From the IMG/VR virus record IMGVR_UViG_2565956631_000014, positions 1-23,166 of that record: DNA of 23,166 bases. One strand, 5' to 3'. The stretch comes from a virus (lineage: Duplodnaviria > Heunggongvirae > Uroviricota > Caudoviricetes). Below, in pieces: positions 2,063 through 18,488 of the stretch. Position numbers and translations under genes: made by a program. Below the pieces are notes generated by a model. That model made no database searches, was not told where the DNA came from, and saw only the letters and a list, made by a program, of their open reading frames with translations. How positions within the stretch are numbered: the first letter of the stretch is position 1; every line of letters starts with the position of its first letter.

Positions 2063-3471
2063 CCTCGATTAATCCTATCTTTGAACCGTTCATTGAGGCG
2101 CATCGCTACAAAGTCGCCAAAGGCGGTCGAGGTAGCGGTAAGTCATGGGCAATTGCGAGGCTGCTTGTTGAAGCGGCGCGTCGGCAGCCTGTGCGTATTC
2201 TCTGCGCTCGTGAACTGCAAAACAGTATCAGCGATTCGGTAATCCGGTTGCTTGAAGATACCATCGAGCGTGAAGGGTATTCGGCTGAGTTTGAAATTCA
2301 GCGTTCAATGATTCGTCATCTCGGATCGAATGCTGAGTTCATGTTCTACGGCATCAAAAACAACCCGACGAAGATTAAATCGCTCGAAGGCATTGATATC
2401 TGCTGGGTGGAAGAAGCGGAAGCGGTAACGAAGGAATCATGGGATATCCTGATACCAACCATCCGTAAGCCGTTCTCTGAAATATGGGTGAGCTTTAACC
2501 CGAAAAACATCCTCGACGATACCTATCAGCGATTCGTCGTAAACCCTCCTGATGATATTTGTCTGCTGACGGTGAACTACACCGACAACCCGCACTTTCC
2601 TGAAGTTCTCCGTCTGGAGATGGAAGAGTGTAAACGCAGAAATCCGACCCTGTATCGTCACATCTGGCTTGGTGAGCCAGTGAGCGCAAGTGATATGGCA
2701 ATCATCAAACGTGAATGGCTTGAAGCTGCTACCGATGCGCACAAGAAACTCGGATGGAAAGCGAAAGGCGCGGTTGTTTCTGCGCATGACCCATCAGACA
2801 CAGGGCCAGATGCTAAAGGTTACGCATCGCGTCACGGTTCGGTAGTTAAGCGCATTGCCGAAGGCCTGCTGATGGACATCAACGAGGGCGCTGACTGGGC
2901 TACTTCTCTGGCGATTGAAGACGGCGCTGACCACTACTTGTGGGATGGTGATGGTGTTGGTGCAGGTCTACGCAGACAGACAACGGAAGCGTTCTCCGGT
3001 AAGAAAATCACCGCCACGATGTTCAAGGGCAGCGAATCGCCATTCGATGAGGATGCGCCTTATCAGGCCGGAGCATGGGCTGATGAAGTCGTGCAGGGCG
3101 ACAACGTTCGCACTATTGGCGATGTATTCCGCAATAAGCGAGCGCAATTCTATTACGCGCTGGCTGACAGGCTGTATCTGACATATCGGGCGGTTGTTCA
3201 CGGTGAGTATGCAGACCCCGACGACATGCTGAGTTTCGACAAAGAAGCGATAGGCGAGAAGATGCTGGAGAAGCTGTTTGCAGAACTGACGCAGATTCAG
3301 CGCAAATTCAATAACAACGGGAAGCTTGAGCTAATGACTAAGGTCGAAATGAAGCAGAAGCTCGGTATTCCATCTCCTAACCTGGCTGATGCGTTGATGA
3401 TGTGTATGCATTGCCCGGCATTGGCCCGCGAAGAAACAGAAATATACGTTCCCTCATCCTCCGGTTGGTAA
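2059..3471 (+). CDS. terminase large subunit (ATPase/nuclease)
   Basis: 470 aa; N-terminal Walker A-like KGGRGSGKS; located between small terminase and portal; length equals Sf6 gp2 as I recall it. Confidence 0.9.
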   Translation: MTSINPIFEPFIEAHRYKVAKGGRGSGKSWAIARLLVEAARRQPVRILCARELQNSISDSVIRLLEDTIEREGYSAEFEIQRSMIRHLGSNAEFMFYGIKNNPTKIKSLEGIDICWVEEAEAVTKESWDILIPTIRKPFSEIWVSFNPKNILDDTYQRFVVNPPDDICLLTVNYTDNPHFPEVLRLEMEECKRRNPTLYRHIWLGEPVSASDMAIIKREWLEAATDAHKKLGWKAKGAVVSAHDPSDTGPDAKGYASRHGSVVKRIAEGLLMDINEGADWATSLAIEDGADHYLWDGDGVGAGLRRQTTEAFSGKKITATMFKGSESPFDEDAPYQAGAWADEVVQGDNVRTIGDVFRNKRAQFYYALADRLYLTYRAVVHGEYADPDDMLSFDKEAIGEKMLEKLFAELTQIQRKFNNNGKLELMTKVEMKQKLGIPSPNLADALMMCMHCPALAREETEIYVPSSSGW

Positions 3472-12008: not shown

Positions 12009-13394
12009 ATGGCTACGTGGCAACAGGGTATTAATTCTGGTGGTTTTCTGGCTGGCATCGGTACGCAAAATGAGAATGCGCCAAAGGCAAGCGACATTAA
12101 CGCAACGCTTGGTCTGATCCGCGAAAACAATGAACTGGCTCGCTCAGGTGCAAATAACGTTGGTCTGACCGCGTTACGTGGTCTGGCTGGAGTTGCTGAT
12201 ATTTACAATCAGGAACAGCAACAGAAAGCGATTAGTGCGTTCAATAAGGTTCACGCTGATGCATGGGCTTCTGGTGATCCATCGGGACTATTTAAGTTTG
12301 CCCAGGAAAATCCAGCGTTTGTTGCACAGGCACAACAGGCGTTTTCCGGTCTTAATGAGCAGCAACGCAACGATATGGGCGATTTAGCCATGAGGGCTAA
12401 CGTCGCTCTTTCTCAGGGACCGGAAGCCTACAGTAAATTCATTACTGACAACAAGGACAGGTTAAATCGCGTTGGCGCTAATGCTGACTGGATGATTCAG
12501 ACAGGTATTCAGAATCCAGAGCAGCTATCACACATGCTGACTACTATGTCTCTCGGTGCGCTTGGACCAGAAAAGGCGTTTGCTGTTCAGGATAAGATGG
12601 TTGGTCGCCAGCAGGAGCAGCAAAGAATTAACGAAACCATTCGCAATAATGACATGACGAATGCGAGGGCTATTAGGGGGCAAAACCTTTCCTATCAGTC
12701 TGCAATGACCGGACACGGACTTGCAGCAGAAAGACTGGCACTTGATAAGCAGAAATTCGGTTTTGAAGTACAACAGGCACAAAAAAAGGCCGAGGAACTT
12801 ATTAATGCAGCGCCAAAATTATCAGTGAACATGGAAAAGGCTATAGAAAAATCAGCAGGTGATGCGGCAGCTAGTCGTAATGCTGCCGATTCAATGACAA
12901 CGCTCGCTGACACGCTGGAGAAGGAGAAGCCAACTCCTGGTTTGTTCGGTAACGCTGAAAATATGTTCTCTAAGCTTACGGGGCAAGATAACTACCTCCG
13001 AGATATGCGGATTAGATTCAACCAACTAGCCAATGCGCAGGCAACCAAGCTTCTCCCTCCCGGCCCTGCATCAGATAAGGATATTGAGTTTGCAAGGAAA
13101 GGCATTCCAAGCGAAACGGATAATCCAATGGTCATGGCTCGATGGTTAAGGGGTATGGCAAAAATGGAAAGTAATAACGCGAAGTTCAACGAGTTTAAGT
13201 CAGAGTGGATGAGTGCAAATGGCAGCCCAGGACAATCTGATCGCAACCGAAACATCATGGGGATGGATGTTAAGAAGGGTGAGTCATTGAACTCTGCGGC
13301 AAAACGTTTTCTTTCCTCAAGTTATGGCGATAGCCAACCTCAACAGCAATTGTCCGATGACGAATTAATTAGCAAATATCTCGGAGAGCAGTAA
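12009..13394 (+). CDS. ejection protein, P22 gp20-like
   Basis: 461 aa, second gene of the ejection-protein triplet; size close to P22 gp20. Confidence 0.65.
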
Positions 13395-15208
13395 TGGCCT
13401 ATAGTCGTGAACAGTTGATGACGGCGTTAAGGAATGCTGATGCTGCCGGCGATACTGAGGGAGCACGTCGCATTGCTCAGATGCTGTCTTCTGGTGATCA
13501 ATCCACTCAAAACCAATCGCAGCCAGAAGAACAATCTCTGGTGGGAAAAGCTACTGACTGGCTCACTGGTGGTCAAAGTGCAGGGCAAATTGCAGAACAG
13601 GCTGGTCGTGGTCTGGTAAACATACCATTTGACGTATTGCAGGGCGGCGCAAGTCTGATTAATGCAATCAGTCAGGGGCTTGGTGGACCCAAGGTTTTGG
13701 ATGATGTTTATCGTCCAGTAGACAGACCGACAGACCCATACGCACAAGCCGGTGAAACAATTGGTGGGTATTTAGTTCCAGGAGTTGGAACGGCAGGAAG
13801 CATGGCTATTGGATCACTGGCAGAGGCCGCAAATCAGAAAGGCGATTTCGCACAAAATGCAGCTAAAAATGCCGGAGTTAACCTTGCCGCTCAAGGTGTT
13901 CTTTCCGCAGCAGCAAAGGGAATAGGGCGTGGAATAACGGCTATAAAAGGTGATATTGCGCCAGAAGTGGCGAAGAAAATTGCCACATCAGAATCGATGG
14001 GCGTGACACCAATGACATCTGATGTTATCCCGCCGAAAAATGCTTTCACTCGCGGCCTTACTCAGGATGCCGAGGGGGCTTTGCTCGGGACAGGATCAAA
14101 GCGAGCCGAGCAGTATGCAAAAAGAAGTCAGCTAGTTAAAAAACAGCTTGAGAAATATGGCGAATATAGCCCATCAGTTGTTGTTGACGATCTGTATGGT
14201 TCTCTGAAGTCAAGGAAGGATTCAGCCGGAAGCGTTATTGAAGACATTACAACCAAAATGGGAGACGCACCTGTTGACACATCAAAATCAATTAAGGTTA
14301 TCGACAACGTACTTACCAGAGCTAACAGGCTTGGGAAAGTGGCAAATAAGGATTTGATTCGCGGGTTATCCGATTTGCGAGAAGAACTTGCTAAACCAGA
14401 TATAGATTTTGGTCTATTGAGAGAGTTACGGTCAGCCTTGAGGGAAAGTATTCAGGGAGATGCCATGGTTTTTCCCAATAGCGCGAAAGCTGCAACTGAT
14501 GCCGTGGAGAGGGCAATGGGTGCAGATTTGAGGAATAACGCAGCACGGTATTTGGGGGCTGGAGAGGCCGCCAGATACGTTAAAGCAAACTCTGACTACT
14601 CCAGCGTCTTCAATAAGGTTCTCAATAAAAGGATTGCGAATAATCTCAACAAAGCTAAAAAAGAGTTTACTCCAGAGCTAATAAACAGCGTTGTATTCAG
14701 CAGAAAACCATCAGATATTAAGAGGATATGGCCTGCTCTTAGTGAAGATGGAAAGAACGCTATGCGTGCTGCTTATATCAGCAAGATTGCAGAAAAAGCA
14801 GGAGACTCGCCAACAAAATTTCTTACCGAGTTAAATAAGTTGAAGTCGCAATCTGACGGTCAGATCTATAACACGATATTCAGTGGGAGACACATGAAAG
14901 AGCTTGATGCTCTTCATGAAGTTCTACAGCAAACAGCAAGGTCGGACACCGCAAATGTGGTAACACAGACGGGGCAATCACAAGCCAACAGGATAAGGAC
15001 GATTGGCGCAACTGCGACTCTTGGGGCAACACTGGCGCTTGAATCTGGTTTCGGTGCAATGATGCGCCTGTATGAGTCCAAAGCAACGAGGAATGCGCTC
15101 TTACGTCTGGCAAATACTAAAGCTGGAACGCCAGCCTATGAAAGAGCGCTGAATAACGCCGCAAATGCCATCAGACCAATACTTGCCAATGATGCAACTG
15201 ATCGCTAA
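13394..15208 (+). CDS. ejection protein, P22 gp16-like
   Basis: 604 aa, start overlaps previous stop (TAATG); size close to P22 gp16. Confidence 0.65.
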
Positions 15209-15229
15209 TGGTTGATGTCATGGATGTTG

Positions 15230-15868
15230 TTAATTGCGAATGGAATCGCGGAACTCTTTACTTGATAGAAAAGGATCTGTTCTCCTTAACTCATCATAGT
15301 TTTTATTAAACTTTCTTGCTTCACCAGGGTATCTGTTGAACAAAACATTGCAGAAAAAAGAGAGCAATAACTCACATATAAATGCTAATATCCTGAAAAA
15401 TAAAGGTATAAAAAGAAGGAAAGGTTCATTGAAGTCTCTATTCCAAACAAAATAGACAATCATCCCGACATACCAAATTGATATCCCTATACTGATGATT
15501 GTTCCAACAGAGGTAACTACGATCCCGATTAAGTCGGACAGTCTGTTTGCCAGTAACTCATTTGAGTATCTTGCAATCATATACCGCCAACATTTTGCAA
15601 TATCATCCTGATCTGTAGAGTCTTCTGGAATGGCTAGGCTTCTACATATTGAAGCAGCTCTTTTTTTCTCAACTCTTTTTGAGAGCCATCCATTAAAGAG
15701 ATACATCAACACCTGCGTTGCTATTCCTGCACCAAGTGATATCAAAGACATCCCCAAAAATCGCCATCCTGGAGATAGTGACTGGTACTGCCAAACAAAA
15801 AAAATTAAAAAACCCAATGAGCCTATGACATAGGCTGATGTATCGCTATATATATCTATTTTTTTCAT
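15230..15868 (-). CDS. multi-pass inner-membrane protein at the sieA position (candidate superinfection-exclusion protein)
   Basis: 212 aa from the internal ATG at 15868, which has AAGGAG 9 nt upstream (track ORF starts 11 codons earlier). Four to five hydrophobic helices (e.g. YVIGSLGFLIFFVWQY, LIGIVVTSVGTIISIGISIWYVGMIVYFVW) with charged loops. Visibly AT-rich relative to flanking structural genes. Convergent with the gp16-like gene. Confidence 0.6.
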   Translation of the reverse strand: MKKIDIYSDTSAYVIGSLGFLIFFVWQYQSLSPGWRFLGMSLISLGAGIATQVLMYLFNGWLSKRVEKKRAASICRSLAIPEDSTDQDDIAKCWRYMIARYSNELLANRLSDLIGIVVTSVGTIISIGISIWYVGMIVYFVWNRDFNEPFLLFIPLFFRILAFICELLLSFFCNVLFNRYPGEARKFNKNYDELRRTDPFLSSKEFRDSIRN

Positions 15869-15918
15869 TGAGTAGCCACTCCTTAGTTTTGAGCAGAACA
15901 CCGGATGATAATGTTTTG

Positions 15919-16170
15919 TTATGTGTCTTTTGGGATTCTATCCAGTAACTCGTTGGAAATTTTATCAAGTAAAGATTTTATTTGTTTAAGATCTAATGAT
16001 TTGTCTACTGATGAGACGTCAGATGATAACGCATCCTCAAGAATTTGAACTATCTCTGAGTTCATAGATCGACCGTTTCGTTTAGCCCTTTCCGCAATAG
16101 CACTACGCATGCCGTCAGGCATTCTAACCGTAAATCTTTCTATGAAATTTGATTCGTCTTTTTCTGACAT
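15919..16170 (-). CDS. mnt: Mnt-like ribbon-helix-helix repressor
   Basis: 83 aa from ATG 16170 (track ORF has a 16-codon upstream extension). N-terminal RHH motif FTVRMPDGMRSAIAERAKRNGRSMNSEIVQILEDAL resembles P22 Mnt (FNFRMPMEVREKLKFRAEANGRSMNSELLQIVQDAL); C-terminal helical tail. Divergent from the arc-like gene. Confidence 0.7.
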   Translation of the reverse strand: MSEKDESNFIERFTVRMPDGMRSAIAERAKRNGRSMNSEIVQILEDALSSDVSSVDKSLDLKQIKSLLDKISNELLDRIPKDT

Positions 16171-16219
16171 TTTCTTATTCGCAAGGCATATGAGCAATAA
16201 AAAACACAGTAGCATCATA

Positions 16220-16274
16220 TTGACATTATGAGCAATGGCATCATAATGGTGTCATGACATCATGGTGATGTCAT
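16220..16274 (+). promoter_or_regulatory. sigma-70-like promoter plus 21-bp palindromic operator in the mnt/arc divergent region
   Basis: Seen directly: TTGACA at 16220..16225, 16-nt spacer, CATAAT at 16242..16247, oriented toward arc. Palindrome ATGACATCA-tgg-TGATGTCAT at 16254..16274 lies between the -10 and the arc start. TGACATTATGA-like motifs repeat at 16221 and 16269. Confidence 0.55.
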
Positions 16275-16290
16275 TATGACGGAGATATTG

Positions 16291-16467
16291 ATGATGAGCG
16301 ATGTTCTTTACAGTGGTCGTAAAAGTCAGAGTTTCCAGCTTCGTTTGCCAGCGCGAATGAAGGAGGAGATCAGACGCGTAGCTGAAATGGATGGAATTTC
16401 TATCAACTCTGCGATTGTGCAGCGACTGGCTAAAAGCCTGAGAGAGGAAAGAGCTAATGCCCAGTAA
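16291..16467 (+). CDS. arc: Arc-like ribbon-helix-helix repressor
   Basis: 58 aa from ATG 16291 (GGAG 6 nt upstream; alternative ATG 16276). RHH signature FQLRLPARMKEEIRRVAEMDGISINSAIVQRL is comparable to P22 Arc (FNLRWPREVLDLVRKVAEENGRSVNSEIYQRV). Confidence 0.7.
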   Translation: MMSDVLYSGRKSQSFQLRLPARMKEEIRRVAEMDGISINSAIVQRLAKSLREERANAQ

Positions 16468-16540: not shown

Positions 16541-17179
16541 ATGAATATTGTAGCAAAATCAGATTATAACTTCCAAGGATTCACTTTTAACCCTGTAACA
16601 GAGGGCGGGTCTATCTGGTTTACCTCCACCGAACTAGCTAAGGCTCTCGGCTATAAAAAAACTGATGCCATCAGCCAAATTTATGCCCGTAATGCTGACG
16701 AATTTTCCGACTCAATGTCATTGACCCTCAATATGAAGGTCAACGGAATAAACAATAGCTTACGTAACAAATCGGTCAGAGTTTACTCACTCCGAGGCGC
16801 TCACTTGGTGGCGATGTTTGCTTCTACGCCCAAGGCCAAAGAGTTCCGCCGCTGGGTGCTGGATATTTTGGATCGGCAGGCAGAATGCTCACCGATTGCA
16901 AAACAGTTTACTGACGAAGAACTGGTTAATCTCTGCTACTTACAATTGTGGATGGAGAAGAGTCAACAAATGTGCAAACACATCTACCCTGGAATGAAGC
17001 AAATTGGTTCTGAGCTTTCAGGAAAGATTTACGATATTGCATATGAGACTCGCTACATGTCAGAAGAAACCAAGAAATCGCTTCTTCGTGAAATGAAGAA
17101 TCTTGATCCCAACAATTTTGTCGTAAAGAACGCTCAGCCAATGCTGGCAAAACTTCGCGGCGAGGAATGGATTCATTGA
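16541..17179 (+). CDS. antirepressor-like protein with Bro-N-type N-terminal domain
   Basis: 212 aa from ATG 16541 (AAGGAA SD; track ORF starts 28 codons earlier). Bro-N-like motifs: GSIWFTSTELAKALGY, VRVYSLRGAHLVAMFASTPKAKEFRRWV. Sits where ant lies in P22 immI. Confidence 0.6.
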   Translation: MNIVAKSDYNFQGFTFNPVTEGGSIWFTSTELAKALGYKKTDAISQIYARNADEFSDSMSLTLNMKVNGINNSLRNKSVRVYSLRGAHLVAMFASTPKAKEFRRWVLDILDRQAECSPIAKQFTDEELVNLCYLQLWMEKSQQMCKHIYPGMKQIGSELSGKIYDIAYETRYMSEETKKSLLREMKNLDPNNFVVKNAQPMLAKLRGEEWIH

Positions 17180-17266: not shown

Positions 17267-17995
17267 ATGACTTTTAAGAATGTAGCAAACATCGGATCCG
17301 TTGTCACGGATAAAACCATTGATAGCCAGTACCTGTTAGAGATGGTCAATCATGCTCGTAGACAGTGCGGGGAAAAAGAAGTCCGAAATAACGACTTTAT
17401 TGCACGCATTAAGGATGAACTTGAAGGTGAGCACTACGAAATTTTCGTAGTTCAAAAATCAAACAAGACAACTTCTGAAAAAGTTGTTATGTCAATTAAG
17501 CAAGCCCTTCGAGTGGCTGCTCGTGAATCTAAAGCTGTTCGCCGCTCACTTGTAGACCAACTTGAAAGTATGCAAGAAGCGCACATTAAAAGCGGTAAAT
17601 CGTCGAGTGGACTTGTTGAGTATCGCCAGGCGCGAACATTGAAAATGACGGTTGAAGCTGTTACCAATCTGTTCGATTTGATGCCAAATCTTGCGCCGGA
17701 AGCAAAGCAGACTGCGGCAGCAAGCATAATCAACCCGCTCGTTGGTTTTAATGCAATACCTCTTCCGGCAATAGAAGAGCATTACTACTCAGCAGGGGAG
17801 GTTGCAGAGCAGCTTGGAGTAACGGCCAACAAGATTGGTCGCATTGCTAACGCAAACAACCTCAAAACTGAGCAGTACGGGAAGTTCTTCTTGGATAAAT
17901 CTGCGCATTCAAGCAAACAGGTGGAAGCATTCCGCTACAATGCGGAGGGTGTTAAAGCACTACAACACCTGATTCATGGGAGCAATGTTGCATAA
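17267..17995 (+). CDS. antirepressor-like protein with KilAC/ANT-type C-terminal domain
   Basis: 242 aa from ATG 17267 (AAGGAA SD; track ORF starts at 17180). C-terminal YYSAGEVAEQLGVTANKIGRIANANNL fits the KilAC/ANT pattern found in the C-terminal half of P22 Ant; N-terminus is Rha-like. Confidence 0.5.
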   Translation: MTFKNVANIGSVVTDKTIDSQYLLEMVNHARRQCGEKEVRNNDFIARIKDELEGEHYEIFVVQKSNKTTSEKVVMSIKQALRVAARESKAVRRSLVDQLESMQEAHIKSGKSSSGLVEYRQARTLKMTVEAVTNLFDLMPNLAPEAKQTAAASIINPLVGFNAIPLPAIEEHYYSAGEVAEQLGVTANKIGRIANANNLKTEQYGKFFLDKSAHSSKQVEAFRYNAEGVKALQHLIHGSNVA

Positions 17996-18216
17996 TGGCA
18001 AAGAAAAGATATGGCATTATGCCGCCAAGAATCAAAGGAAGAGCCAGGGTAAAAGGAGATGCTGGAAGGTATCACATTCTTGGAGTTCTGTGGCATGAGA
18101 GAGCTTTAATTTTAAGTAGACCTCATGGGTACATTGAAAAGGTATCTATAGATAGAGTAGAGATTCTTCCCCTTACACCTGAAGAAGAAGAAACTTACGG
18201 ACTTTTTGATAACTAA
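17995..18216 (+). CDS. hypothetical small basic protein (73 aa)
   Basis: Start overlaps the previous stop (TAATG); followed 8 nt later by a strong terminator. No recognisable motif. Confidence 0.45.
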   Translation: MAKKRYGIMPPRIKGRARVKGDAGRYHILGVLWHERALILSRPHGYIEKVSIDRVEILPLTPEEEETYGLFDN

Positions 18217-18223
18217 CCAATTA

Positions 18224-18252
18224 AACCCGCTTAATCGCGGGTTTTTTCTTTT
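18224..18252. terminator. Rho-independent terminator (strong for + strand, possibly bidirectional)
   Basis: Seen directly: AACCCGC-ttaatc-GCGGGTT hairpin followed by TTTTTTCTTTTC on the + strand. The hairpin also contains the stop codon of the minus-strand Mnt-like gene. Confidence 0.75.
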
Positions 18253-18488
18253 CTAAGAATATCAGCCGCAACTTCTTTTACTCGTTCCGAGATTAATGAG
18301 GCAAGCCTCTCTTCTTCATCACGATACCCGCTTACAGGTGATGGTTTGGAGAGCGATTCTTCCATCGTAGCCACAATTTCGGAATTGATAGACCTGTTAT
18401 TCATTTTTGCACGTTGCTTAATCTTGGCGTGCAACTCGTGCGTAAGCCTCAAGTGGAACTGCGCCTCATCGTATTTGCTGTACATCAT
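18231..18488 (-). CDS. mnt: Mnt-like ribbon-helix-helix repressor (second paralogue)
   Basis: 85 aa from the ATG ATG at 18488/18485 (GAGG 7 nt upstream); the 217-aa track ORF is an upstream read-through. Strong resemblance to P22 Mnt: FHLRLTHELHAKIKQRAKMNNRSINSEIVATMEESLSKPSPVSGYRDEEERLA versus FNFRMPMEVREKLKFRAEANGRSMNSELLQIVQDALSKPSPVTGYRNDAERLA. Confidence 0.7.
   Translation of the reverse strand: MMYSKYDEAQFHLRLTHELHAKIKQRAKMNNRSINSEIVATMEESLSKPSPVSGYRDEEERLASLISERVKEVAADILRKEKTRD

Follow-up and report, generated by a model that had tools for sequence, protein, structure and literature searches.

T4 Imm and HK97 gp15 are small membrane proteins of phage or prophage origin that stop the entry of DNA after adsorption, and both act on phage types other than those addressed by SieA; neither is known to be related in sequence or fold to the SieA protein described here. 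For SieA itself, Leavitt et al. (mBio 2024, PMC10883804) described three sequence types with the common motif FxRYPxEAxxFNK. P22 SieA was shown to reside in the inner membrane, and escape mutations alter gp16 and gp20 in their C-terminal regions; the gp16 family is the published target, and contact of SieA with gp16/gp20 is the published model (PMC10883804). Type B SieA occurs in prophages of E. coli and Salmonella and carries an N-terminal extension of ≈ 30 aa with an extra transmembrane helix; EcHS_A0321, from prophage HS1 of E. coli HS, is listed as one of its representatives (PMC10883804). HS1 sieA, placed together with 106 bp of upstream DNA at the galK locus of Salmonella, conferred full exclusion of P22, L, MG40, MG178 and LP7, and a hybrid phage with HK620 ejection proteins partially escaped the HS1 type B protein (PMC10883804). 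Villafane et al. (2008, PMC2629481) had described the 'ant moron' of P22-like phages as a non-structural region, variable and rich in AT, which lies between genes 16 and 9 and is in rapid flux, the prophage HS-1 of E. coli being one of the cases included.

The window analysed here, a stretch of 23,166 nt, comes from a P22-like E. coli prophage and represents its late region, with the terminase through the ejection-protein genes on the plus strand. The features referred to below are as follows.

13394-15208, plus strand: gene-16 homologue (ejection/DNA-transfer protein; phrog_770 DNA transfer protein, E 4e-244)
15120-15137, minus strand: terminator-like hairpin, the sole one downstream of sieA (consensus scan, weak), inside the 3' end of gene 16
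15230-15868, minus strand: gene of the membrane protein, 212 aa from ATG or 223 aa from an upstream GTG, assigned below to type B sieA
15879-15914, minus strand: conserved leader/junction ACATTATCATCCGGTGTTCTGCTCAAAACTAAGGAG with the RBS and a possible -10 element TATCAT (15910-15905); cassette exchange at its 3' end
15919-16170, minus strand: gene of an Mnt-like RHH repressor, 83 aa, or 99 aa if read from the ATG at 16218 further upstream
16171-16290, no strand assigned: divergent control region with promoter-like sites and palindromes (consensus scan, repeat finder)
16220-16247, plus strand: Pant-like site TTGACA-16-CATAAT (consensus match)
16241-16214, minus strand: Pmnt-like site ATGCCA-16-TATGAT (consensus match), overlapping the Pant-like site
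16254-16274, no strand assigned: perfect 9-3-9 inverted repeat (repeat finder), at the position of Omnt in P22
16294-16467 (alternative start 16291), plus strand: gene of an Arc-like repressor (Pfam Arc, E 1.1e-11)
16541-17179, plus strand: gene of an Ant-type antirepressor with Bro-N and P22AR_C domains
17267-17995, plus strand: second antirepressor-type gene (phrog_1726 'anti-repressor')
18231-18488, minus strand: gene of a second Mnt-like RHH protein, 85 aa, with 47% identity to P22 Mnt over 73 aa
18621-21308, plus strand: tailspike ORF

The original prediction had placed two co-directional minus-strand genes, one for an Mnt-like protein and one for a membrane protein, between the ejection-protein genes and arc/ant, and both were confirmed at the positions given above. 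They had further been described as richer in AT than their flanks, in agreement with a GC content of 0.363 for sieA and 0.361 for the Mnt-like gene, where genes 16 and 20 have 0.471 and the whole window has 0.468 (≈ 36% versus ≈ 47%). Because conserved homologues exist for both, the two ORFs are considered real genes and not chance reading frames. The membrane-protein gene and the gene-16 homologue are convergent, with a gap of 21 bp, and the former lies between the homologues of gene 16 and gene 9 (tailspike) on the opposite strand, which is the location expected of a type B sieA; P22 sieA has an equal position and orientation, such that the assignment of this site as the sieA position holds.

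Whether the 212-aa protein was a SieA relative or an unrelated membrane protein had been left undecided, and profile searches had been proposed. These returned PHROG 7745, 'superinfection exclusion SieA-like' (E 1.7e-20, residues 45-191); BLASTP against P22 SieA gave 28% identity over 148 residues (E 2e-24), and tblastn against 50,697 phage records matched 38 of them at 27% identity, exclusively in sieA genes, namely those of P22 and its relatives. The common motif is present as FNRYPGEARKFNK (residues 177-189), and among 14 type B sequences its residues N178, R179, P181, E183, F187, N188 and K189 are invariant, with F177 and A184 conserved to at least 90%. Sixteen type B clusters at 90% identity carry invariant residues, which is consistent with purifying selection. 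The alignment starts at residue 44 of the window protein and at residue 14 of P22 SieA, corresponding to an N-terminal extension of ≈ 30 aa. Homology, motif, N-terminal extension with an extra predicted transmembrane segment, and location are all in place; as every type B feature that can be examined in the sequence was found, the gene at 15230-15868(-) is identified as a type B sieA. By PHROG 7745, BLASTP and motif the protein is a true homologue, and it very probably serves a P22-like E. coli prophage as its type B SieA, acting by the exclusion mechanism set out below. A PF26849.1 assignment for the 212-aa protein is precomputed in a large protein database.

HS1 provides the closest comparison. 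The protein from the E. coli HS prophage is identical to the window protein at 208 of 212 residues, the four substitutions in HS1 being L62I, A72T, F150S and I160V; EcHS_A0321 is equated here with RefSeq ECHS_RS01600 on account of position, length and identity. Both proteins have 212 aa, and both genes converge on gene 16 and follow the same leader; the differences reside in the upstream neighbour, a 213-aa HTH gene in HS1 and the 83-aa Mnt-like RHH gene in the window, and in the -35 region of the candidate sieA promoter. Since the window protein is a near-identical allele of an experimentally characterized type B SieA, its function can be regarded as already known, and the finding amounts to the re-identification of a type B SieA, with exclusion activity published in 2024, within the known 'ant moron'. 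Among complete E. coli genomes, megablast located the window gene in 21 of 5426 at ≥ 98.6% identity, E. coli HS included. In the phage collection, the interval 15100-16300 gave only a 99-bp megablast match, at the end of gene 16, so that the window allele appears to be carried by no sequenced phage. In a wider context, a profile search of 1.84 billion representatives (E ≤ 1e-3) assembled 177 SieA-like clusters at 50% identity, most of them of 160-180 aa, and the SieA superfamily thus extends beyond the three published types; some of its members, of 277-617 aa, have further sequence fused to the SieA-like region.

An AF2 model of the window protein, based on the 14-sequence type B alignment (mean pLDDT 80, pTM 0.62), has helices at residues 6-26, 33-77, 87-100, 106-143, 149-177, 183-197 and 204-211. 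Hydropathy and model agree on four transmembrane helices (≈ 6-26, 37-58, 113-142, 150-177); of the four to five that had been claimed, four are retained, and a fifth was not seen by either approach. Ten Lys/Arg residues are found in the loop 60-112 and nine in the C-terminal tail, with one in each short loop, a positive-inside pattern by which the N-terminus, the large loop and the C-terminus are predicted to be cytoplasmic, leaving two very short turns on the periplasmic side. Strong conservation within type B is observed in the stretches AKCWRYMIARYS..LLANRLSD plus the motif region, assigned to the cytoplasm, and in the short turns W26..Y28..L31..W35-R36-F37 and W142..P149. P22 SieA (type A, 160-164 aa) has the common motif, the three C-terminal transmembrane helices, the genomic slot and a 5' leader, GGTATCCTGCNCAAAACTAAGGAG, in common with the window protein, which differs by its fourth transmembrane helix, located in the N-terminal extension, and by a C-terminus longer by ≈ 20 aa.

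In the mechanism proposed here, the prophage would express sieA at a low level, and the protein would insert into the inner membrane by four helices, with the N-terminus, the 59-112 loop and, at the C-terminal end, the FxRYPxEAxxFNK region on the cytoplasmic side. SieA would then prevent superinfecting P22-like phages from delivering their DNA, most likely because it disturbs how the trans-envelope conduit of gp20 and gp16 assembles or functions. We infer that the window copy is expressed and active, and that it makes molecular contact with gp16/gp20. A lysogen-expressed block to incoming phage DNA, as put forward in the original prediction, would accordingly have been the right function to suggest, the 98%-identical protein fitting the experimentally shown excluder.

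Two other readings of the membrane protein deserve consideration. It might be a holin-like lysis factor, a toxin or abortive-infection effector, or a surface-modifying conversion function, its similarity to SieA being only structural; searches of Pfam (a set without PF26849.1), NCBIfam and PADLOC did not assign the 212-aa protein to any family, Foldseek of the AF2 model against PDB and BFVD returned nothing below E = 1, and all 189 members of its 90% cluster are named 'hypothetical protein', as are the copies in the RefSeq genomes examined. Such a role is nevertheless extremely improbable, given that the sequence homology to SieA is both specific and significant, that the near-identical HS1 protein produced the exclusion phenotype of P22 SieA (PMC10883804), and that the gene is placed outside the lysis cassette, on the strand opposite to the late operon. 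Alternatively, sieA could be an inactive remnant in a decaying prophage, as pseudogenes and an IS3 element occur in this region of some related prophages and shorter versions of 158 and 173 aa belong to the same cluster. The window gene, on the other hand, is a full-length ORF with only four substitutions relative to the apparent HS1 allele, its exact protein sequence is present on 211 contigs, the leader and the RBS (TAAGGAG preceding the ATG) are intact, and the structural genes around it are intact long ORFs; decay is for these reasons very unlikely, and a functional type B SieA remains the preferred assignment.

A gap of 50 bp separates the gene from the Mnt-like gene. From the stop codon of the latter to the start of sieA, neither a terminator nor a stable hairpin was detected (consensus scan; folding z-score 0.51), and read-through or co-transcription from the mnt-like promoter is therefore possible. 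Consensus scans covered the window, prophages whose upstream genes are divergent, and P22 itself, and in none of these did they yield a convincing sigma-70 promoter ahead of sieA. Only HS1 has a site matching at 9 of 12 positions before sieA, TTGATA-17-CATTAT, with its -10 element correctly spaced in the conserved block; the -35 of the candidate promoter in the window is poor. In P22, a strong terminator follows mnt-orf59a and a putative promoter of its own precedes sieA, so that orf59a, the terminator and ≈ 380 bp separate mnt from sieA where the window has 50 bp without a terminator. Judged from these signals, transcription of the window sieA probably results from read-through from the mnt-like promoter, from a weak promoter with its -10 in the leader, or from both. 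An RNA structure in the leader sequestering the Shine-Dalgarno sequence was considered and rejected, as only a 4-bp UCCU/AGGA pairing was found and the folding of 15850-15990 was no better than that of shuffled sequences. Downstream, the weak hairpin at 15120-15137 lies ≈ 93 nt beyond the sieA stop codon; as it is located within gene 16, the sieA transcript may run antisense across the 3' end of that gene. In BTP1, a lysogen-expressed antisense RNA at the corresponding position, STnc6030, confers immunity (PMC7067206).

The original prediction had combined the Mnt-like gene and the membrane-protein gene into one horizontally acquired cargo unit, and this part did not survive comparison with other genomes, in which the two genes reassort independently. 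In favour of a single acquired, co-regulated operon, with the membrane gene dependent on the Mnt-controlled promoter, one may cite the co-directional arrangement with a 50-bp gap and no intervening terminator-like hairpin, the low GC of 0.36 common to both genes, the Pmnt-like site upstream of the Mnt-like gene, and 13 complete E. coli genomes that carry both genes together at ≈ 99% identity. Type B sieA, however, is found in at least five upstream contexts, the window included: behind the 213-aa HTH gene in HS1, behind a LexA-family gene in H22, and next to divergent neighbours, with no co-directional gene upstream, in Z1322HEC0003, EC31 and OZ039848. These contexts become similar to one another only at 30-46 bp before the ATG, the leader being the sole upstream part that is conserved. 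Conversely, the Mnt-like module has at least five different downstream genes; in its identical form, operator included, it is present in 24 genomes, 11 of which lack type B sieA, and in the four of these 11 that were examined it is joined to a gene of 129, 109, 106 or 62 aa, with an identical leader and the junction exactly after AAGGAG. The terminator behind P22 mnt, the putative promoter of P22 sieA itself, and the activity of ectopic HS1 sieA with only 106 bp of upstream DNA (PMC10883804) likewise speak against dependence on an Mnt-controlled promoter, and the operon is rather unlikely as an explanation. From their independent contexts, the two genes are separate modules, and on comparative sequence grounds sieA is a separately exchangeable cassette located 50 bp downstream of the Mnt-like gene.

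The leader itself extends over ≈ 30 bp, (TCAT[C])TGGTATCCTGCNCAAAACTAAGGAG, and is often conserved through a GTG start codon; the window version reads GGTGTTCTGCTCAAAACTAAGGAG. As GGTATCCTGC[A/G/T]CAAAACTAAGGAG it also precedes P22 sieA (3432-3456 of the P22 locus sequence), although the SieA proteins are less than 30% identical. Of 5426 complete E. coli genomes, 218 (≈ 4%) contain it, and a scan of viral contigs for CCTGCNCAAAACTAAGGAG gave at least 120 contigs. Among 123 listed occurrences, 15 upstream-context types and 15 downstream types were distinguished, the latter corresponding to ≈ 14 distinct gene families by protein clustering of the matches listed; within the same matches, one upstream type occurs with 10 different cassettes. 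Downstream of the leader, again among the matches listed, are SieA-A, SieA-B and ≈ 12 further unrelated types of small ORFs, and 13 of 14 downstream types carry a signal peptide, a lipobox or transmembrane segments at the N-terminus. Among the occupants are a secreted protein of 129 aa, a lipoprotein of 161 aa and single-pass proteins with a coiled coil (phrog_5962, phrog_8100). Ten downstream types were compared with PHROG and Pfam: nine belong to PHROG families without known function and one matches no PHROG, and the Pfam search gave no significant match for any of the ten. Nearly all cassettes converge on the 3' end of a gene-16 homologue of 600-770 aa, from which 0-24 bp separate them. Just 3' of the stop codons of different cassettes, a short CCATCCATGG-like motif is seen again and again (ACATCCATGACATC in the window, 15209-15229), which may represent a 3' junction or the vestige of a bidirectional terminator. 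The gene st313-td of BTP1 was discarded as a slot occupant, as the literature places it, as bstA, adjoining cI.

It is tempting to regard the site convergent on gene 16 as a dedicated single-gene exchange slot, in which the leader would serve both as portable expression signal and as recombination anchor, and several occupants could perhaps exert superinfection-exclusion or envelope-modifying functions at the same injection step; this proposal is put forward tentatively, as a serious possibility that falls somewhat short of being probable. The slot coincides with the region of the 'ant moron', and the excerpted passages of that paper describe neither the conserved leader nor a single-gene slot by gene 16 (PMC2629481); a literature search for the leader sequence gave only a match inside a recombineering primer. 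The leader-marked slot provides a short, testable list of candidates for new prophage functions in blocking injection or modifying the envelope. Within the present analysis, further work might be repaid only by this leader-defined slot for cassettes, which could matter more than sieA itself.

For the remainder, the practical value lies in annotation, with SieA still entered as 'hypothetical' and the intact Mnt-like gene flagged as a pseudogene. The 83-aa Mnt-like protein matches Pfam Arc (PF03869, E 1.4e-17) and is 55% identical to P22 Mnt over 38 aa, within the RHH domain only (P22 residues 7-44). BLASTP similarity of the 83-aa protein to P22 Mnt ends at residue 49, and in its C-terminal third no similarity to the tetramerization domain of P22 Mnt was detected by this method; the C-terminus is conserved within the protein's own family of 81-83 aa. 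In several genomes, PGAP/RefSeq treat the gene as a pseudogene, 'incomplete, missing C-terminus', comprising no more than the first 51 codons. Homologues of full length (81-83 aa, 60-79% identity) exist in Salmonella, Citrobacter, Hafnia and Cronobacter, and the pseudogene label therefore looks like an annotation artefact.

By consensus and position, the layout of the control region upstream of the Mnt-like gene parallels the annotated Pant/Pmnt/Oarc/Omnt of P22. P22 Mnt has the same length as the 83-aa protein. In both cases the gene diverges from arc-ant, face-to-face promoter-like sites overlap, and a palindrome lies immediately 3' of the Pant-like -10; the operator sequences differ. Judged by its position, the Mnt-like gene would be the maintenance-repressor analogue of the adjoining arc-ant (immI) module. 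The 174-nt Arc-like gene is called identically by RefSeq in strain 980-2. The antirepressor-type genes form a tandem pair, as compared to the single ant of P22. An Rfam scan of the window gave nothing, and no sar-family match. Two promoter-like sites are present at 16547-16590(-), inside the 5' end of ant, one of which (TTAAAA-16-TATAAT) scores 10 of 12; they point back over the arc-ant gap, where P22 has the promoter of the sar antisense RNA.

A 73-aa ORF (17995-18216, plus strand), flanked by the second antirepressor-type gene and the second Mnt-like gene, matched no NCBIfam family; RefSeq carries it as a conserved hypothetical in related prophages. With its 47% identity extending over 73 aa, the product of the second Mnt-like gene is a closer full-length relative of P22 Mnt than the 83-aa protein. 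This gene is divergent from the tailspike gene, at a distance of 132 bp, and the arrangement recurs in other E. coli prophages, in one of them with an internal stop codon.
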